DNA of 12,846 nt, from NCBI GenBank assembly GCA_964388035.1, contig CAYLZE010000043.1, forward strand, positions 25,038-37,883, in the 5' to 3' direction. Origin of the DNA: an uncultured archaeon. GTDB taxonomy: Archaea > Asgardarchaeota > Lokiarchaeia > Sigyniarchaeales > SOKP01. How positions within the stretch are numbered: the stretch's first letter is position 1; every line of letters begins with the position of its first letter. The position numbers and the translations under genes are program-made. Shown here piece after piece: positions 453 to 10,615 of this stretch. Under the pieces are notes generated by a model that saw only the letters and a program-made list of their open reading frames with translations, ran no database searches and was not told the DNA's origin.

Positions 453-550
453 CTTCTTCATTGGTTCTGGATTTGTTAGCAAGAGGTTAAAATGAAGGAG
501 GGGTTCACACATTCGGCATGTTTTTATTATTCATGACACTACACATTCTT

Positions 551-1066
551 ATGCCACAAGAAAAAATAAAACCAACTATAGTATTACGTGAAATGCGCGA
601 GTCTGTCTCAAAAATTCTTGACAGGCCTTATACAGAACGTATAGACCACCAAATTTTTAAACCAGATCAAAAAATTTTAACTTTATGGGCTTTAGATTGT
701 GCTGAACACGTTCTTCCATTTTTTGAAGAAAAATTTCCCAAAGATATCAGACCTCGAAAAGCTATAGAAATTCTCCTTCAATGGATAAATACAGGGGTTT
801 TTAAGATGTCTGTCATACGGAAAGCATCACTCGATGCTCACGCCGCTGCTCATGAAGCCAATAACATCGGGGAAAATGCGGCATATCACTCGGCTCATGC
901 TGCAGGTCAAGCGGTAGCAACAGCTCATGTCGTCACACATGCTTTTGGGTGCTCTGTTTATGGTATCAGAGCCGCCGCTGCACATTCAGGCAAAATAGAG
1001 GATGGCATTATAAAAGAACGAGATTGGCAATTAAAACGCTTACAATATTATAAAGCCAAGAATTAA
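551..1066 (+). CDS. Imm5-like putative immunity-family protein
   Basis: Family-typical motifs LWALDCAEHVLPFFE, DIRPRKAIE, W..G, AHAAAHEA, AHAAGQAVATAHV..HA...Y. The start is uncertain (ATG 518, 551 or 593); 551 is preferred because the 518 extension looks non-coding. Confidence 0.75.
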   Translation: MPQEKIKPTIVLREMRESVSKILDRPYTERIDHQIFKPDQKILTLWALDCAEHVLPFFEEKFPKDIRPRKAIEILLQWINTGVFKMSVIRKASLDAHAAAHEANNIGENAAYHSAHAAGQAVATAHVVTHAFGCSVYGIRAAAAHSGKIEDGIIKERDWQLKRLQYYKAKN

Positions 1067-5086: not shown

Positions 5087-5100
5087 AAACAAATTATATA

Positions 5101-5123
5101 CTTTTATCTACTTTTTATTTTTT
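5101..5123 (+). terminator. Oligo-T tracts after the methyltransferase gene; candidate archaeal terminator
   Basis: CTTTTATCTACTTTTTATTTTTT starts ~15 nt after the stop, ahead of a convergent ORF. Confidence 0.3.
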
Positions 5124-5188
5124 AAAATTTATTTTAAAATATCAATAAATTTAAGAAATTTGCTATTTGTTATTCTTTTTGCGGATAA

Positions 5189-5350
5189 TTAATTTCTTAA
5201 TAGAATTCCGTCCATTTTAACAATTTCATCGAGTTTTATTATTACATTTTCCAGATATTCAGTTCTTGCTAATTGTTCCTTTATTTGGGCACCTTTTTCG
5301 TTAATTAATTTCTTGCATTTGGTTAATTGGTCTTTTAATTGCTTTTCCAT
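5189..5350 (-). CDS. Unannotated 53-aa coiled-coil-like protein
   Basis: MEKQLKDQLTKCKKLINEKGAQIKEQLARTEYLENVIIKLDEIVKMDGILLRN*. ATG at 5350, TAA at 5189-5191. K/E/Q/L-rich, Pro-free and helical, with coding-like composition in an otherwise AT-rich gap. Confidence 0.55.
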   Translation of the reverse strand: MEKQLKDQLTKCKKLINEKGAQIKEQLARTEYLENVIIKLDEIVKMDGILLRN

Positions 5351-5611
5351 ATATAAGATCCTATAATTACCATTGTTCTTGATAAGATATTTTTTAGATT
5401 TCTTAAAAAATTATAAGATGGAATATATATAGTAATAAAGTAAATATGTAGAATATCCAAAAGACAGATTAGTTGGTTCTCTAAAATATAAATTCAAAAA
5501 AGGAAATTGACAAGAGAATTATGCACCTTAATGTATTGAACTTGAGTGGAATTAAATTTATATCATATTCATAGATTATTAATACAAAAATTAAATGATT
5601 TAAATTCTCGA

Positions 5612-6112
5612 CTAAATCTTTTCATTTATCGATTTTTTAAGAATAATCTCATCTCTTATTGGAATTCCGTTCATTCCTTCCATTGGAATTTCTGGTTTCA
5701 ATTGTCATGCTTTCTCCATTGCATTAATATTAATTCGGTTTATTTTAAATCCTTTTTTTTGATAAAATTGTAAAGCTGTTGTATTGTCATTGGTAGTAGC
5801 CACTCTCATGGTTTCATATTCTAATGATTTAATGACTTTTTCTAGCTTTTTAAGAAGTAAGGTTCCTATCCCAATCTTTTCAATCAAGCTATTTAATGCC
5901 ATTATTTCACATTCCTTATTTTCTATCCTATAAATTAAAAATCCCACTATCTTACTACCTTTAAGTGCAATGAGCCCCGGTAATTTATCAAGATAATGAA
6001 TCTTGCCACAACTTATTATCTTTTCAGAACCCCATGAGTTTTTAATTATAGGTTTGATTTGTTCATAATGGGTTCTATCCAGTTTGATAATTTGAATCGC
6101 CGTTTCATTCAT
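5612..6112 (-). pseudogene. GNAT-family N-acetyltransferase interrupted by an in-frame TGA (5705-5707)
   Basis: GNAT motifs GIGTLLL and TTNDNTTALQFYQKKGF. After MEKA-TGA the same frame continues QLKPEIPMEGMNGIPIRDEIILKKSINEKI-TAG (5612), the typical C-terminus of this GNAT subfamily. ATG at 6112 (the track used TTG 6115). Confidence 0.75.
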
Positions 6113-6472
6113 CAATACTGAAAATATGAAGGAATTAAAAAATCCCTATTAGTTGTATCAAGGTATTGTAATTTTATACTCAGATATTTTTATCAATTTA
6201 TTTCCTTGACATTTAAGTTAAATTATTGAGATGACAAATAAATCTATTTTAAAATAATTTAAAACTCAATTTTCATACTTATCATAATGCTATGAAATGT
6301 ACAATGGGATATAACGAGGAATATTTTGAGGACACATGTAATTGATTCGATATTAAGAAAATAGAATATATTTCTATCAATCAAATCGATACTTTACAAT
6401 TTAGTAACCCAATCCTTGGTAGAATTATTATTTCCGAATTCATTATAAAAGATATTGATTTATAATAAATTA

Positions 6473-6560
6473 ACAATGATTGAAGTATAAAATGAGATCA
6501 TTGTACGAAATATCTTAAAAAAATTCATTTTTTTGTCCAAAGCAGGATAGATTATATAAA
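6473..6560 (+). promoter_or_regulatory. 8-bp inverted repeat and BRE/TATA candidate upstream of the 446-aa ORF
   Basis: ACAATGAT(6473-6480)-N16-ATCATTGT(6497-6504), then GATAGATTATATAAA at 6546-6560. Confidence 0.4.
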
Positions 6561-6618
6561 TAATTAGTATATATAATAAAAAAAGTAAGATAAATTAGTT
6601 TTTATAGGTTTATTGAAA

Positions 6619-7953
6619 ATGCCAGAAGATTATGAAAAAAAGAAGAATGAATGGGAATGCTTGCAAATTACTAACGATGGACGAAATGTCTTTAATATGA
6701 GAACCGGAGAAGAAATCAAGTATAAGAATGAAGAAAAGATTGCAGGAGTGTTACCAAAAAGTTATCAGTATCCTGTGTTCCCGGGAGATGTGGGAGAGAA
6801 AAGTGCAGATTGGGTAATCGATTCTTTAATTTCACTGAACAAGATATATCCCAGTAAATTTTTCGTCCTCTTATTTGCAGATGCCATGTTTATCGCTAAC
6901 CATGAGTACGATCCTGAAAGAAAGATGTATGAGAGAGCGATCAGGAATACCTTTGATCAAATAATTCGGTTGGATCAATATTGGAAAGAAACCTACAACC
7001 AAGATTTAAGAATGTTAATATTAAGCACGGGAGGGGTTGTAAATTTTAAAGGTTACATTGATCTTTTTGATCTGATAGAAAAGTTTCCGGAGTATACTTT
7101 TATGTCTTTTTGGGGGCATGCTGGAGTATTTCTTAAAGACTTCCACGGATACAATTACACTGCGACCAAAGAACCGATAATAAAATTAGGGGAAAGAAAA
7201 CCAAAATTACGATCAGATTTTTCGGATAAGGAATTAAGGTTCTTAAAGCTTCTAGAAAATAGCAATTACTTCGAAAAGGTGGTTGTAGTTTCGGATTTAA
7301 TTAAAGAAAGTGATACTCCTTCTTTTGAATTTCTCTCATATGCTCCCGATATTATATGTACCGCAGAACAGGGAAAACATTTTATCGTCCCTTCCGGAGA
7401 GTCACGTAAACTATATCGCGTTCTCGATTATTCTAAAACGATTGGATATAAAGTAGTAAATGATTGGAACATGAAAATTCCCTTAAACCATATTACGGAT
7501 ATTTTTCCTTCCACGATTTTAAATGTTCAGGAAGGACCTACGGCTCTAATTATTATCGAAGGGGCAGGTTCACAACAAATTCCGGATCGACATGGTACCA
7601 TAGAAACCACTTGGGGAAATCTACCTTATGGTGCTGATCATAATTTCCTCTTTTCGGTATCAACAGGAAAATCTGCCTTTCATTCACCCTTTCCTTATGG
7701 GACATCTCCTTCGGCAACGCGATCTCATTATTATCCTTATAGTTGGGGGAGAGAACCAGTAATGGATGGAATTGGTTCTCTTTATCTCATAAAAGAGAAA
7801 AAAATCCGTTCCATTGCGGCAGGATCTCGTTCAATGTGGCCGCACATGTTTCTAGGGGGAGATATTTGCATCGAACCTTGGGCTCGAAATAGGACGGAGA
7901 ATGGTTTCACTTTCGTTTTGAATAAAACTCAAATAATGCAAAAACAACAATAG
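6619..7953 (+). CDS. Divergent, apparently circularly permuted alkaline-phosphatase-superfamily (PhnA/nucleotide pyrophosphatase-like) protein
   Basis: Residues ~64-303 (track numbering) resemble the C-terminal half of the AlkP core, and residues ~309-412 resemble the N-terminal half (see findings). ATG at 6619 (the track used TTG 6613). The CDS itself is clearly real; the fold call is manual motif recognition. Confidence 0.6.
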   Translation: MPEDYEKKKNEWECLQITNDGRNVFNMRTGEEIKYKNEEKIAGVLPKSYQYPVFPGDVGEKSADWVIDSLISLNKIYPSKFFVLLFADAMFIANHEYDPERKMYERAIRNTFDQIIRLDQYWKETYNQDLRMLILSTGGVVNFKGYIDLFDLIEKFPEYTFMSFWGHAGVFLKDFHGYNYTATKEPIIKLGERKPKLRSDFSDKELRFLKLLENSNYFEKVVVVSDLIKESDTPSFEFLSYAPDIICTAEQGKHFIVPSGESRKLYRVLDYSKTIGYKVVNDWNMKIPLNHITDIFPSTILNVQEGPTALIIIEGAGSQQIPDRHGTIETTWGNLPYGADHNFLFSVSTGKSAFHSPFPYGTSPSATRSHYYPYSWGREPVMDGIGSLYLIKEKKIRSIAAGSRSMWPHMFLGGDICIEPWARNRTENGFTFVLNKTQIMQKQQ

Positions 7954-7989: not shown

Positions 7990-8030
7990 CATAAAAATTC
8001 TTAATTATGCTTTAGTATTATTAATCCTTG

Positions 8031-8498
8031 ATGCAGACTTCATCAGAATACAATAAAATAGAATATAAAAAGATCGACTTATCAGTAGTTTTAATGGCAA
8101 ATGTAATAAATATCTTAATGACCTTCTTATTTATTTTCAGAATCTCTCATCTGAATCAATTAGAACATGGCTTTGGTATCATTACGATAATAATGGGTTT
8201 TATCCTCGGCATTATAGCCATATATAATAAATTTAATGGAAGAGAGAAATGGGAAGTGCTACTTCTTCTTCCGGTCTTCATATTTTTCGTTGTAGAACTA
8301 ATTTTAGATTATATTTTGGTAGTAAATTTCCGTGAAACTGCATTTGTTGGACTTTATATTCTTCTTTATTACGTTGGATTATGGGGTCTCATAGGATATG
8401 CGTTTAGATTTGAAAAAAAATGGGGTTTCATTACTCTTATTACTTACTTTTTTAACATGACTTTCTCAATTTTGCCTTATATTCTTATTATCTCTTAA
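8031..8498 (+). CDS. Hypothetical integral membrane protein (~5 TM helices)
   Basis: Five hydrophobic segments: LSVVLMANVINILMTFLFIF, FGIITIIMGFILGIIAIY, VLLLLPVFIFFVVELILDYILVV, AFVGLYILLYYVGLWGLIGYAF and WGFITLITYFFNMTFSILPYILII. ATG at 8031. Confidence 0.75.
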   Translation: MQTSSEYNKIEYKKIDLSVVLMANVINILMTFLFIFRISHLNQLEHGFGIITIIMGFILGIIAIYNKFNGREKWEVLLLLPVFIFFVVELILDYILVVNFRETAFVGLYILLYYVGLWGLIGYAFRFEKKWGFITLITYFFNMTFSILPYILIIS

Positions 8499-8582
8499 GA
8501 ATTTAAGGTAAACAAATTGATTTAAATATCAATGCATTATTATAATGATTTAAAAAGCAAGATTAACCACGACGTAAAAAAA

Positions 8583-9374
8583 ATGCCTATTTTTGATAAT
8601 AAAGGAATTAAAATATATTATGAAATCATCGGAGAAGGACCCGATTTATTTTTAGTCCATGGGTTTGCCTCTAACTTGGAAAATAACTGGAAATCGACAA
8701 ATTGGGTTAAAACCTTGAAAGATTCCAACCGATTAATCTTGATAGATAATCGAGGTCATGGAAAAAGTGGAAAGCCTCTAGATTCTAACCTTTATGGTGC
8801 TAACATGGTTACTGATATTTTAGGATTAATGGATCATTTATCCATCAAGCAATCCAATTTTTTCGGCTATTCGATGGGTTCTAGTTTAACATTAAGCATC
8901 ATCATAAATTATCCTGAGAAAGTCAAGGGCGCTATTCTTGGAGGGTACACCATACCGATGACGGAAAATACACAAACTAAAATGTTCCATTCTCTAATTG
9001 TTGATGCCCTTAAAGTAGAAAATAAGGATATGGTCAAGAATCCGGTCGCAAAACAATTTCGGGTTTTTGCAGAGTCTACAGGAGAAAACTTGGCAGCCTT
9101 AGCCGCTGTAATGGAAAGCATGGGAAATGTGAATGAACCAAAATTGAGTAATGAAGCTCAAATTAAGAAAACTTTGAAGAATATTAAGATTCCCATCCTC
9201 TCGGTTTGTGGTTCAGATGATGTTCTCCTCCAAAACAAGACAATGTATGCAGAATTAGTTCCGGGAGCTTGTCATTTTCAAATTCAAGGCAAAGATCATT
9301 TGACTGTAGTGGCTGATGCCAAATTTCATTTGGTAGTCAAAGAATTTTTAAAATATATTAATAAAAGTTCCTGA
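8583..9374 (+). CDS. Alpha/beta-fold hydrolase
   Basis: LVHGF oxyanion motif, DNRGHGKS, GYSMG nucleophile elbow, GSDD acid and KDH His. The likely start is MPIFDNKGIKIYYE at 8583 (the track starts at 8532). Confidence 0.88.
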   Translation: MPIFDNKGIKIYYEIIGEGPDLFLVHGFASNLENNWKSTNWVKTLKDSNRLILIDNRGHGKSGKPLDSNLYGANMVTDILGLMDHLSIKQSNFFGYSMGSSLTLSIIINYPEKVKGAILGGYTIPMTENTQTKMFHSLIVDALKVENKDMVKNPVAKQFRVFAESTGENLAALAAVMESMGNVNEPKLSNEAQIKKTLKNIKIPILSVCGSDDVLLQNKTMYAELVPGACHFQIQGKDHLTVVADAKFHLVVKEFLKYINKSS

Positions 9375-9382
9375 GAATACCC

Positions 9383-10615
9383 ATGAAAATCGATGATAAT
9401 CTAAATCATGATGCAGAAAATAATGTTAGCTCTGTAAATATCCTAAATCAGCAAGGAGTTGTTTTCGGAAATCCACTCAAGGATGTATATACAGGAATTC
9501 AGATGATATCCGGATGTGCATGGATAAATACAACAGAAGGTATAGTCTTAATCGATACTTTAACCACAAAAGATGCTGCAAAAAAGGTTCTGGAAAAGAT
9601 TGATGGAAAAATCAAGTACATAATTTATACTCATGGGCATAATGACCACGTGGGAGGATCTAAGGTCTTTCTTTCTCATCAACCTGAAATAATTGCAAGC
9701 AAATATCTTCCAGATAGAATAGAAAAATATAAAATGCTCGCTCCTTATAATGCACGTATTTTATCCCAACAATTTAACATGCCTGAAAAAATGCGCGAAT
9801 ATGATTATGCAATGCCCACGAAAACCTTTTTAGGTGAAATGAGTTTTAAATTGGGAGATAAAACGTTCGAGTTATATACTGAACGTGCTGAAACCGATGA
9901 CGCTTGTTGGATCTATATCCCTGAAATTGAAGCGGCATTTATTGGAGATTTATTGATCGGAAGTTTTCCAAATATTGGCAATCCCTGGAAACCCACCCGA
10001 TTTGCCTTGGATTGGGCTAAGGCCTTGGAAAGAATTAGAGCAAAAGACCCGAAATACGTTTTTTATAGCGGGGGAGGTAATTATTATAAGGGAAAAAAAG
10101 CATTAAAAGCTTTAGAAGAAACAAGTGAGGCCATTCGAATATTACACGATCAGGTCATGGACTTGATTAATAAAGATGTTCATGTTACCGAAATGATTCA
10201 CCAAGTTAAGCTTCCCGATTATCTGGAAAAAAGTCCCTATTTACGACAAAGGTATTCTAGGCCAGAATTTTTCGTTTTTAACGTGTATCGATGGTATCAT
10301 GGATATTTTGATGGAAATCCTGCTCATTTACTTCCCAGACCAGAGAAAGAAGTAATGGAGGAAGTCTATAATCTCATAGGAGATCCCGTAAAAGTGTTAA
10401 GTAGAGTAAAAGCATTAGGGGAAGAAGGGAAAAATCAACTCGCCCTTCAAGTATTAGATGTGTTAATTCAAGCCGCACCTACCCATTTAGAAGCCAGGAG
10501 AATAAGGATTGAACTATTAGAAAAATTGGGAGCCGAAGATTATTGCCTAATGTCAAGGAATGCCTGGCATTACTTCATAAAGCGTGATAGTAAGTATATT
10601 CAAGATCATTCCTAA
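9383..10615 (+). CDS. Alkyl sulfatase (SdsA/BDS1)-like metallo-beta-lactamase-fold hydrolase with dimerization domain
   Basis: THGHNDH, AETDD, GDL, FPNIGNPWK..R, and the dimerization-domain motif YRWYHGYFDGNPAHLLP. No signal peptide and no SCP2 domain. It starts 8 nt after the hydrolase gene. Confidence 0.8.
   Translation: MKIDDNLNHDAENNVSSVNILNQQGVVFGNPLKDVYTGIQMISGCAWINTTEGIVLIDTLTTKDAAKKVLEKIDGKIKYIIYTHGHNDHVGGSKVFLSHQPEIIASKYLPDRIEKYKMLAPYNARILSQQFNMPEKMREYDYAMPTKTFLGEMSFKLGDKTFELYTERAETDDACWIYIPEIEAAFIGDLLIGSFPNIGNPWKPTRFALDWAKALERIRAKDPKYVFYSGGGNYYKGKKALKALEETSEAIRILHDQVMDLINKDVHVTEMIHQVKLPDYLEKSPYLRQRYSRPEFFVFNVYRWYHGYFDGNPAHLLPRPEKEVMEEVYNLIGDPVKVLSRVKALGEEGKNQLALQVLDVLIQAAPTHLEARRIRIELLEKLGAEDYCLMSRNAWHYFIKRDSKYIQDHS

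Follow-up and report, generated by a model that had tools for sequence, protein, structure and literature searches.

A branch of the alkaline phosphatase superfamily with an apparently permuted fold and a rewired active site in an Asgard archaeon and its radical SAM-linked relatives

The alkaline phosphatase (AlkP) superfamily is a textbook case of one fold and one two-metal site diversifying. The two metals are held by an Asp, two Asp-plus-His pairs, and a further His, and the first strand (beta-1) lies in the middle of the central sheet in the SCOP description of the fold. The members closest to the protein studied here are PhnA and the nucleotide pyrophosphatases/phosphodiesterases (NPPs) of Pfam family PF01663 (Phosphodiest), and the structures used for comparison were those of PhnA (1EI6, 3SZY), ENPP6 (5EGE/5EGH), ENPP7 (5UDY), ENPP4 (4LR2), and Xac NPP (2GSN/7MW8). 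A literature search produced no description of a circularly permuted AlkP-superfamily member, and we know of none; nor did it return anything relevant on a pair consisting of a radical S-adenosylmethionine (SAM) enzyme and an AlkP-like protein. Our study concerns such a candidate, encoded at 6619..7953 on the plus strand of a 12,846-nt stretch of Asgard archaeal DNA (hereafter the window).

Like PhnA and the NPPs, the product of this gene has an alpha/beta core with a cap, shared over ~225 residues, and it retains remnants of their PD, DIxPT, beta-1, and TG motifs. Unlike them, it appears to carry the region corresponding to old residues ~135-407 first and that corresponding to old residues 1-134 last, and it is matched by no Pfam model at E<0.1. 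It has also lost the Zn ligands D..H, DH, and distal H, with the nucleophilic Thr replaced by Asp340 (or by Gly in relatives) and the beta-1 Asp replaced by Glu. In their place are two new invariant motifs, GSRSxxxH and DIxxE(C/P)xxRN, and the protein is cytoplasmic and belongs to a family partnered with radical SAM enzymes. What is new here is best described as a permuted, catalytically rewired branch of the AlkP superfamily within an unannotated family of radical SAM partners. Our reading, to which we assign a probability of about 0.7, is that the family has a permuted NPP/PhnA-type core with a dismantled two-metal site, and that it acts with its radical SAM partner in a role linked to molybdenum and tungsten (Mo/W). 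A permuted, metal-site-less, radical-chemistry-linked branch would widen the known evolutionary range of the fold, an enzyme pair under molybdenum cofactor (Moco) riboswitch control would offer a handle on an unknown Mo/W step in anaerobes, and a permutation-aware model would put a name to several hundred proteins now called "hypothetical."

Predicted fold, order of its elements, and active site

The sole long reading frame in this region spans 6613-7953, with its stop codon at 7951-7953. The ATG at 6619, which is also the start in a 73%-identical homologue (P0003), is most likely the true start and would give a product of 444 amino acids (aa). A preliminary description of this DNA, made from its letters alone, had counted from the TTG at 6613, and its residue numbers accordingly run 2 higher than ours. 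From the open reading frame (ORF) list, the translation, and the homologues, the product is a cytoplasmic protein of the Asgard subclade of an unannotated family. Pfam contained no family at E≤0.1, PF01663 included; NCBIfam gave nothing beyond a chance match (0.094) to an unrelated model; and neither phmmer nor profile searches of the PDB found an AlkP-superfamily match. The only PDB profile match, PurE (E 0.1), was put down to chance. PADLOC likewise had no family at E≤0.1, and hence the protein does not fall among PglZ/BREX or other defence AlkP-like families. Standard hidden Markov model libraries therefore leave the protein unannotated, as had been predicted, and they presumably miss the whole family because its order is permuted and its metal site is lost.

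Searching 5.8 billion clustered proteins yielded only five close homologues (46-73% identity), and a related-loci search with this narrow alignment led to one Asgard contig. In contrast, an exhaustive profile search of 1.84 billion representative proteins gave 58 matches with E values down to 1e-25, most of them ~380 aa long and colinear with the query from end to end at 22-26% identity. A repeat homologue search with the wide alignment yielded almost nothing extra. In a protein-language-model search, a 378-aa "hypothetical" cluster ranked first, and PF01663 AlkP-family clusters came next at 0.93.

An AlphaFold2 (AF2) model built from the five close homologues was unusable (predicted local distance difference test [pLDDT] score of 39.7), whereas the 58-sequence alignment gave a model with a pLDDT of 92.2 and a predicted TM-score (pTM) of 0.93. 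When this model was compared to the PDB with Foldseek, the top matches were all ENPP/PhnA structures (probability 1.00, E down to 4.5e-4). VIA-align was run on 48,161 representative chains and then on Foldseek's top 1000; 109 chains reached Z≥5, the top matches again were all ENPP/PhnA, and the best Z was 8.9 (225 residues, 3.5 Å). Residues 10..305 of the model superpose on residues 135..407 of PhnA 1EI6 with Z values of 8.6-8.9 and root mean square deviations (rmsd) of 3.5-3.6 Å over 225-226 residues, and ENPP6, PhnA, ENPP7, ENPP4, and Xac NPP together span Z 8.1-8.9 and rmsd 3.5-5.0 Å over ~225 residues. The same pairing pattern as with PhnA was observed with ENPP6, ENPP7, ENPP4, Xac NPP, PafA, other alkaline phosphatases, and iPGM. 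Among the matches listed, model residues from 8/10 or 51/55 to 305/351/392 were paired with the C-terminal part of the catalytic domain, and the first ~300 model residues always occupied the C-terminal two-thirds of the target and reached its C-terminus. Because VIA-align pairs model residues 10-305 with only those C-terminal two-thirds, the Foldseek TM-scores are only ~0.3. The PhnA alignments stop at model residue 304/305, which is chain residue 407/416 and the chain end, leaving unpaired segments of nearly equal size: model 306-444 (139 residues) and PhnA 1-134 (134 residues). At the level of the fold, the three-layer alpha/beta/alpha core with a cap is that of the superfamily, with superposition covering residues ~10-305. 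The predicted structure of this soluble protein is thus an AlkP-type alpha/beta core of the NPP/PhnA kind.

The preliminary description had proposed that the old C-terminus is joined to the old N-terminus at nt 7520-7540, with the two halves mapping onto AlkP in swapped order. We examined this by comparing profiles of a 104-sequence family alignment and of an alignment of 13 PF01663 proteins from related Asgard genomes. In a two-by-two comparison with hhalign, the crossed pairs matched (N-terminal part with template C-terminal part, P 2.8e-4 local and 8.5e-5 global; C-terminal part, 306-~400, with template N-terminal part, P 0.008, or 93 columns at P 0.0034), whereas the same-order pairs were near noise (P 0.053 and 0.47). 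Against a tandem-duplicated PF01663 template, local hhalign traced one unbroken path (score 56.2, P 5.9e-6, 177 columns) as compared to a score of 38.3 (P 5e-4) with the single template. Leaving the old C-terminal region, this path crosses the junction at about residue 306 (nt ~7534) and continues through beta-1 and the nucleophile helix in the second template copy. In the native order, the global score was 28.2 (P 2.5e-5, template columns 152-496), and placing residues 306-444 before 1-305 raised it to 41.5 (P 9.4e-8, 346 columns, template 24-475 of 496). A scan of 17 cut points had its maximum at residue 306 (38.1 at 300; 33.1 at 312; 15.5 at 320), within the stretch of residues 301-307 to which the proposed join corresponds. 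The local tandem test was repeated with the sub-templates T1 (36.3 vs 26.6) and T2 (46.2 vs 38.6). The canonical order of AlkP elements is therefore not what the alignments show: the chain opens with motifs D to H (residues 60-305), and beta-1 and the nucleophile helix (308-350) are found behind them. In the structural and profile comparisons together, residues 10-305 map on PhnA 135-407 and residues 306-~400 on the N-terminal third of PF01663. We conclude that the permutation, although not proven, is well supported and highly probable. The family as a whole shares this permuted fold with the window protein.

Eight motif blocks had been named in the preliminary description, and in the profile-profile alignment each stands at the place claimed for it and pairs with its proposed AlkP/NPP counterpart, including ITDIFPSTIL with DIaPTIL, TALIIIEG with beta-1, MLILSTGG with hhhSDHG, and APDI with PD. 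Residues 8-305 (6640..7533; all features are on the plus strand) correspond by VIA-align and hhalign to the old C-terminal two-thirds of the NPP/PhnA core with its cap, i.e., motifs D to H. Within this segment, the P55-G56-D57 loop (6781..6789) is conserved in the family (P 100%, G 99%, D 96%; conservation here and below is computed over 104 sequences), and it is without an AlkP counterpart, falling in a template gap of the profile alignment. The WVIDS helix and the strand FFVLLFAD pair with the template helix and strand that carry the D..H ligands; at this strand and the next helix (6859..6915), both ligands are gone, with Y-A-x-P in most of the family and no conservation of D88. The segment AIRNTFDQIIRL pairs with the long AlkP helix. 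S136-T-G-G (7024..7035) occupies the position of the AlkP S-D-H-G ligands, both lost; the family "IVGtG" aligns to the template "SDHG," and G138 is 96% conserved. An Asgard-subclade insertion of ~31 residues (172-202, 7132..7224) is missing from the ~380-aa bacterial relatives, and the model has a lower pLDDT there (75-77). P243-D244 (7345..7350; P 97%, D 70%) corresponds in hhalign to the NPP "PD" that precedes the cap strands. The stretch 7492..7539 comprises the old C-terminal helix ITDIFPSTILNVQE, the counterpart of DIaPTIL, along with the junction LNVQEGP, as placed by the model, the PhnA alignments, and the cut scan; LNVQEGP comprises residues 301-307, between model helix 292-305 and strand 308-313.

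Beyond the junction, the strand TALIIIEG (7540..7563) corresponds to AlkP beta-1, "hhhhD(G)," with hhalign pairing "KVALIivE-G" with "kilvIgiD." Glu314 (7558-7560), conserved in 97% of the family, takes the place of the metal-binding Asp; no other canonical active-site acid is left. DHNFLFSVSTG (7636..7668) aligns with the nucleophile helix; T349-G350 matches the NPP "TG" at the end of that helix, with G350 conserved in 100%, and IRSIAAG pairs with the strand that follows. Asp340 is found at the position of the Thr nucleophile, where 73% of the family have Gly, so that the Ser, Thr, or formylglycine expected ahead of TG is missing. As to the metal ligands, D..H is now Y/F-A(-D), DH is T/x-G, and no distal His is present, leaving Glu314 only. 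The changes of DG to EG and DHG to TGG and the losses of the nucleophile and the distal His had all been pointed out in the preliminary description, and all were seen. The alignments thus indicate that other residues have taken the place of five of the six metal ligands and of the Ser/Thr nucleophile, and because of this, classical phosphoryl or sulfuryl transfer is very unlikely.

The family has instead conserved a different polar set: D57, W65, E314, R404, S405, H409, D415, E419, R423, and a Cys at 420. All are present in the window protein save Cys420, where there is Pro; this position is Cys in 90% of the family and Pro throughout the Asgard clade. Across six Asgard-clade sequences, D57, E314, R404-S405, H409, D415, E419, and R423 are invariant. 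Two signature motifs hold most of these residues. The first, G402-S-R404-S405-M-W-P-H409 (7822..7845; G 95%, R 86%, S405 94%, H409 95%), follows model strand 398-402 and is a candidate part of a new active site; the second is D415-I-C-I-E419-P-W-A-R423-N (7861..7890; D 89%, E 97%, R423 91%). The segments RSMWPH and EPWARN, which had been singled out as new polar motifs, prove to be among the most conserved in the family.

Partner enzyme, metal context, and ancestry

We collected 80 metagenome loci of the bacterial branch, 60 of which had enough upstream sequence for a count of partners. In 57 of the 60, a radical SAM gene of one type ends ≤400 nt upstream on the same strand, and several of the 58 profile matches are ~730-aa fusion proteins with the radical SAM domain first and the family domain second. 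The family is thus the near-obligate partner, adjacent or fused, of this enzyme, which is ~336 aa long, has N- and C-terminal Cys pairs, and is without a SPASM domain. Its nearest match is the AmmeMemoRadiSam enzyme (TIGR04337), with which it shares the two Cys pairs, but its scores of 109-145 bits are below the 220-bit cut-off, and the AMMECR1 and Memo partners of that system are replaced here by a permuted AlkP-fold protein. Sulfatases and their anaerobic maturases (anSME) are comparable in that an AlkP-fold protein is tied to a radical SAM enzyme in anaerobes. They differ in that the present family has no sulfatase signature and no metal site, its radical SAM enzyme is activase/AmrS-like with no SPASM domain, its fusions have the radical SAM domain first, and its context is metal import rather than sulfate-ester use.

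Neighbours in the bacterial loci include TonB-dependent receptors, Peripla_BP_2/FecCD/ABC importers, ExbB/ExbD/TonB, class I methyltransferases, and FmdE, and some loci have ModA/ModB-type transporters or multihaem cytochromes. An Rfam riboswitch scan of 42 loci found the Moco riboswitch (RF01055) in three: in L073 and L112 it precedes the operon, and in L115 it immediately precedes the radical SAM/family pair. No other riboswitch class was found in such a leader position. Processing of haem, siderophores, or cobalamin, which the TonB/FecCD operons had suggested, was rejected since the only leader riboswitch is that for Moco. The bacterial members thus have a Mo/W context (Moco riboswitch, ModABC, FmdE, or type II ABC importer), and the radical SAM/family pair lies in import operons of anaerobes that are tied to Mo/W supply. 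The partnership and the Mo/W link go beyond the preliminary description, and because of them the functional options are narrowed.

Several loci have further features of their own. In L115, the Moco riboswitch lies at 5531-5651 with no transporter between it and the radical SAM/family pair, and a SAM riboswitch is found further downstream (10226-10342). L093, which holds a radical SAM/family pair and a ModABC-type transporter, has a c-di-GMP-I riboswitch near the end of the locus (14268-14342, minus strand). L053 and L109 (~5.8-8.1 kb) each have a tandem of two family genes (410 and 399 aa) that does not directly follow a radical SAM gene, a bacterial instance of duplication of the AlkP-like partner.

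The genome that contains the window has a second family copy, 58% identical to the window protein, on another contig (C142). On C142 and in a related genome (G007), the gene order is an energy-coupling factor (ECF)-type transporter (a PF09819 component, a double ABC ATPase, and a CbiQ-type component), the radical SAM gene, the family gene, a DUF4213/DUF364 gene, a major facilitator superfamily (MFS) gene, and a DUF364 gene. C142 is the only place in the window's genome where a partner-type radical SAM gene is found beside a family gene; three more distant radical SAM genes of this kind are found elsewhere. The DUF364 genome context has been described as including molybdate and tungstate transporters (PMC2954201), and one DUF364 member acts on a SAM derivative (PMC12930334). 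The make-up of the conserved Asgard cluster at 1905-11060 on C142 (L005) suggests that it produces or handles a small molecule or metal chelate. There was no Rfam match in the window, in L005, or in L006, and hence no Moco riboswitch.

The window protein shares with the ~380-aa bacterial proteins a colinear homology over its full length, the same signature residues, and the permuted fold, and its paralogue has the same radical SAM neighbour. The Asgard subclade is unlike the bacterial proteins in its insertions (~45 residues in total, mostly 172-202), its very long stem branch, its Pro in place of Cys420, and its clade-specific Asp340-His341; the transport genes of the Asgard paralogue are of the ECF type with DUF364 and MFS rather than TonB/FecCD, and beside the window copy neither a radical SAM gene nor a transporter gene is found. 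Of the 301 Asgard genomes searched, only 2 had the family, and these belong to one family-level group. In the provisionally rooted tree, the Asgard sequences form one clade with a very long stem inside the bacterial radiation, and within it the window protein and P0003 are sister to the radical SAM-linked paralogue. This topology fits an acquisition from bacteria that would have been followed by duplication and loss of linkage. Judged by homology and signature residues, the window copy belongs to the family even though radical SAM adjacency is missing, and it appears to be a lineage-specific paralogue that lost its radical SAM neighbour while keeping every signature residue. With gaps of 74, 33, and 8 nt to the next three genes, it probably forms a four-gene operon with them.

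Proposed role and alternative explanations

If the permutation is correct, the chain would begin near the equivalent of PhnA residue 135 and run to the old C-terminal helix ending at 305; a link of ~3 residues would then lead into the old beta-1 (308-313), the nucleophile helix (340-350), and the remainder of the old N-terminal third. D57, E314, R404-S405, H409, D415, E419, and R423 may line the old active-site end of the sheet and there bind a tetrahedral oxyanion or an anionic metal-chelate substrate. The most likely role of the family would be that of a non-hydrolytic subunit that holds the substrate for a radical SAM enzyme or takes part in its catalysis. With moderate confidence, we propose that it binds an oxyanion or metal chelate for its radical SAM partner in Mo/W handling. 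The candidate substrates would be those of a Mo/W step, e.g., molybdate/tungstate, thiomolybdate, or an imported Mo/W chelate. The role of the window copy is extrapolated from its relatives: it may use the C142-encoded radical SAM enzyme in trans or have a related binding role. A bolder version is that the permuted fold is the oxyanion- or chelate-holding subunit of an undescribed Mo/W step in anaerobes, and that the Asgard pair came from bacteria with one copy later redeployed; we offer this tentatively, as a possibility that we would not favour over its negation.

A number of observations weigh against our reading. A VIA-align Z of ~9 is "middling" on the tool's own scale, and the assignment of residues 306-444 to the old N-terminal third draws on profile alignments that are individually weak, combined with the logic of motifs and sizes. 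A third sub-template showed no similarity of any kind in the tandem test, and with small sub-templates (3-6 sequences) the global cut-point peak at 306 was absent, which is why we rely on the local tandem test. That the new conserved residues cluster in one pocket at the sheet end of the old active site is something we infer, and we know of no substrate or activity for any member of the family. As to the Mo/W link, just 3 of the 42 loci scanned have the Moco riboswitch, and the loci from metagenomes are mutually related, with some near-duplicates. Finally, radical SAM, transporter, and Mo/W genes are all missing from the surroundings of the window copy, and the window as a whole contains no radical SAM gene.

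Part of this evidence could also be explained if an N-terminally truncated AlkP-like domain (1-305) had been joined to an unrelated, novel C-terminal domain (306-444) without any permutation. The structural aligners paired only residues ~10-305 with AlkP-superfamily chains, the C-terminal part against the AlkP N-terminal third is weak alone (P 0.003-0.013), and the global permuted alignment failed with small sub-templates. However, the strand following the old C-terminal helix aligns with beta-1 and matches Glu with the metal-binding Asp, the helix with the invariant TG at its end aligns with the nucleophile helix, and with three template sets a single path over the junction of the duplicated template outscored either piece. 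The leftover lengths also agree (139 vs 134 residues). Moreover, because beta-1 of AlkP is central and the model is a compact single domain with a pTM of 0.93, a domain lacking it would need a replacement strand in mid-sheet. We consequently regard such a fusion as improbable. A different explanation for the partnership itself is that the protein is the substrate of the radical SAM enzyme and is matured as sulfatases are, with a modified Ser, Cys, or Gly making it a hydrolase. Its fold is common to sulfatases, its pairing or fusion with an activase-like radical SAM enzyme is near-obligate, and S405 (94%), G402 (95%), and Cys420 (90%) are conserved candidate targets. Nevertheless, neither the sulfatase motif (C/S)xPxR nor the glycyl-radical motif RVxG is present, the ~336-aa partner with its N- and C-terminal Cys pairs lacks a SPASM domain, the metal ligands that a sulfatase-like site needs are absent, Cys420 is Pro throughout the Asgard clade, and no maturase adjoins the window copy, making this explanation unlikely as well.

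One might also suppose that only the C142 paralogue is functional and that the copy in the window is a duplicate turned pseudo-enzyme, decaying or devoid of function, as its radical SAM neighbour has been lost, 1.5 kb of AT-rich non-coding DNA precedes the gene, and the family is so rare among the Asgard genomes searched. We consider this quite improbable: the reading frame is intact, all of the signature residues that are invariant in the six Asgard-clade sequences are kept, a 73%-identical orthologue (P0003) in another assembly implies that the branch has been maintained since the duplication, and the short gaps to the three downstream genes suggest an operon. A non-hydrolytic, permuted binding subunit thus remains our preferred explanation. 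The observations of the preliminary description are confirmed, and its interpretation as a permutation is supported: the core is AlkP alpha/beta, the halves map in swapped order, and re-ordering improves the profile match, each of which could have turned out otherwise.

Neighbouring genes in the window

The gene that begins 74 nt past the family gene (8028-8498, plus strand) encodes a very hydrophobic product of 156 aa with no Pfam, NCBIfam, or PADLOC match, and its language-model neighbours are "hypothetical" clusters of Bathyarchaeota and Chloroflexota. Possibly this product is a small membrane protein and its gene is transcribed together with the family gene. That it might be a diverged DUF4213/DUF364 protein was considered and rejected, as no similarity was found. 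It is followed, within 8532-10615 (plus strand), by two genes: one for an Abhydrolase_1 alpha/beta hydrolase and, 8 nt after it, one for a metallo-beta-lactamase (MBL)-fold alkyl-sulfatase-like protein with an alkyl-sulfatase dimerisation domain. On the other side, ~1.5 kb at 5087-6618 (~26% G+C), with no long ORF and no Rfam match, separates the family gene from a corrinoid methyltransferase pair. Canonical PF01663/AlkP-family genes are unusually numerous in these organisms, with ~20 matches in the genome that contains the window and up to 25 in related Asgard genomes. Near the start of the window (518-1066, plus strand), this archaeal genome also encodes a 182-aa protein with an Imm5-like immunity-protein domain (PF21805, E 2.7e-37).

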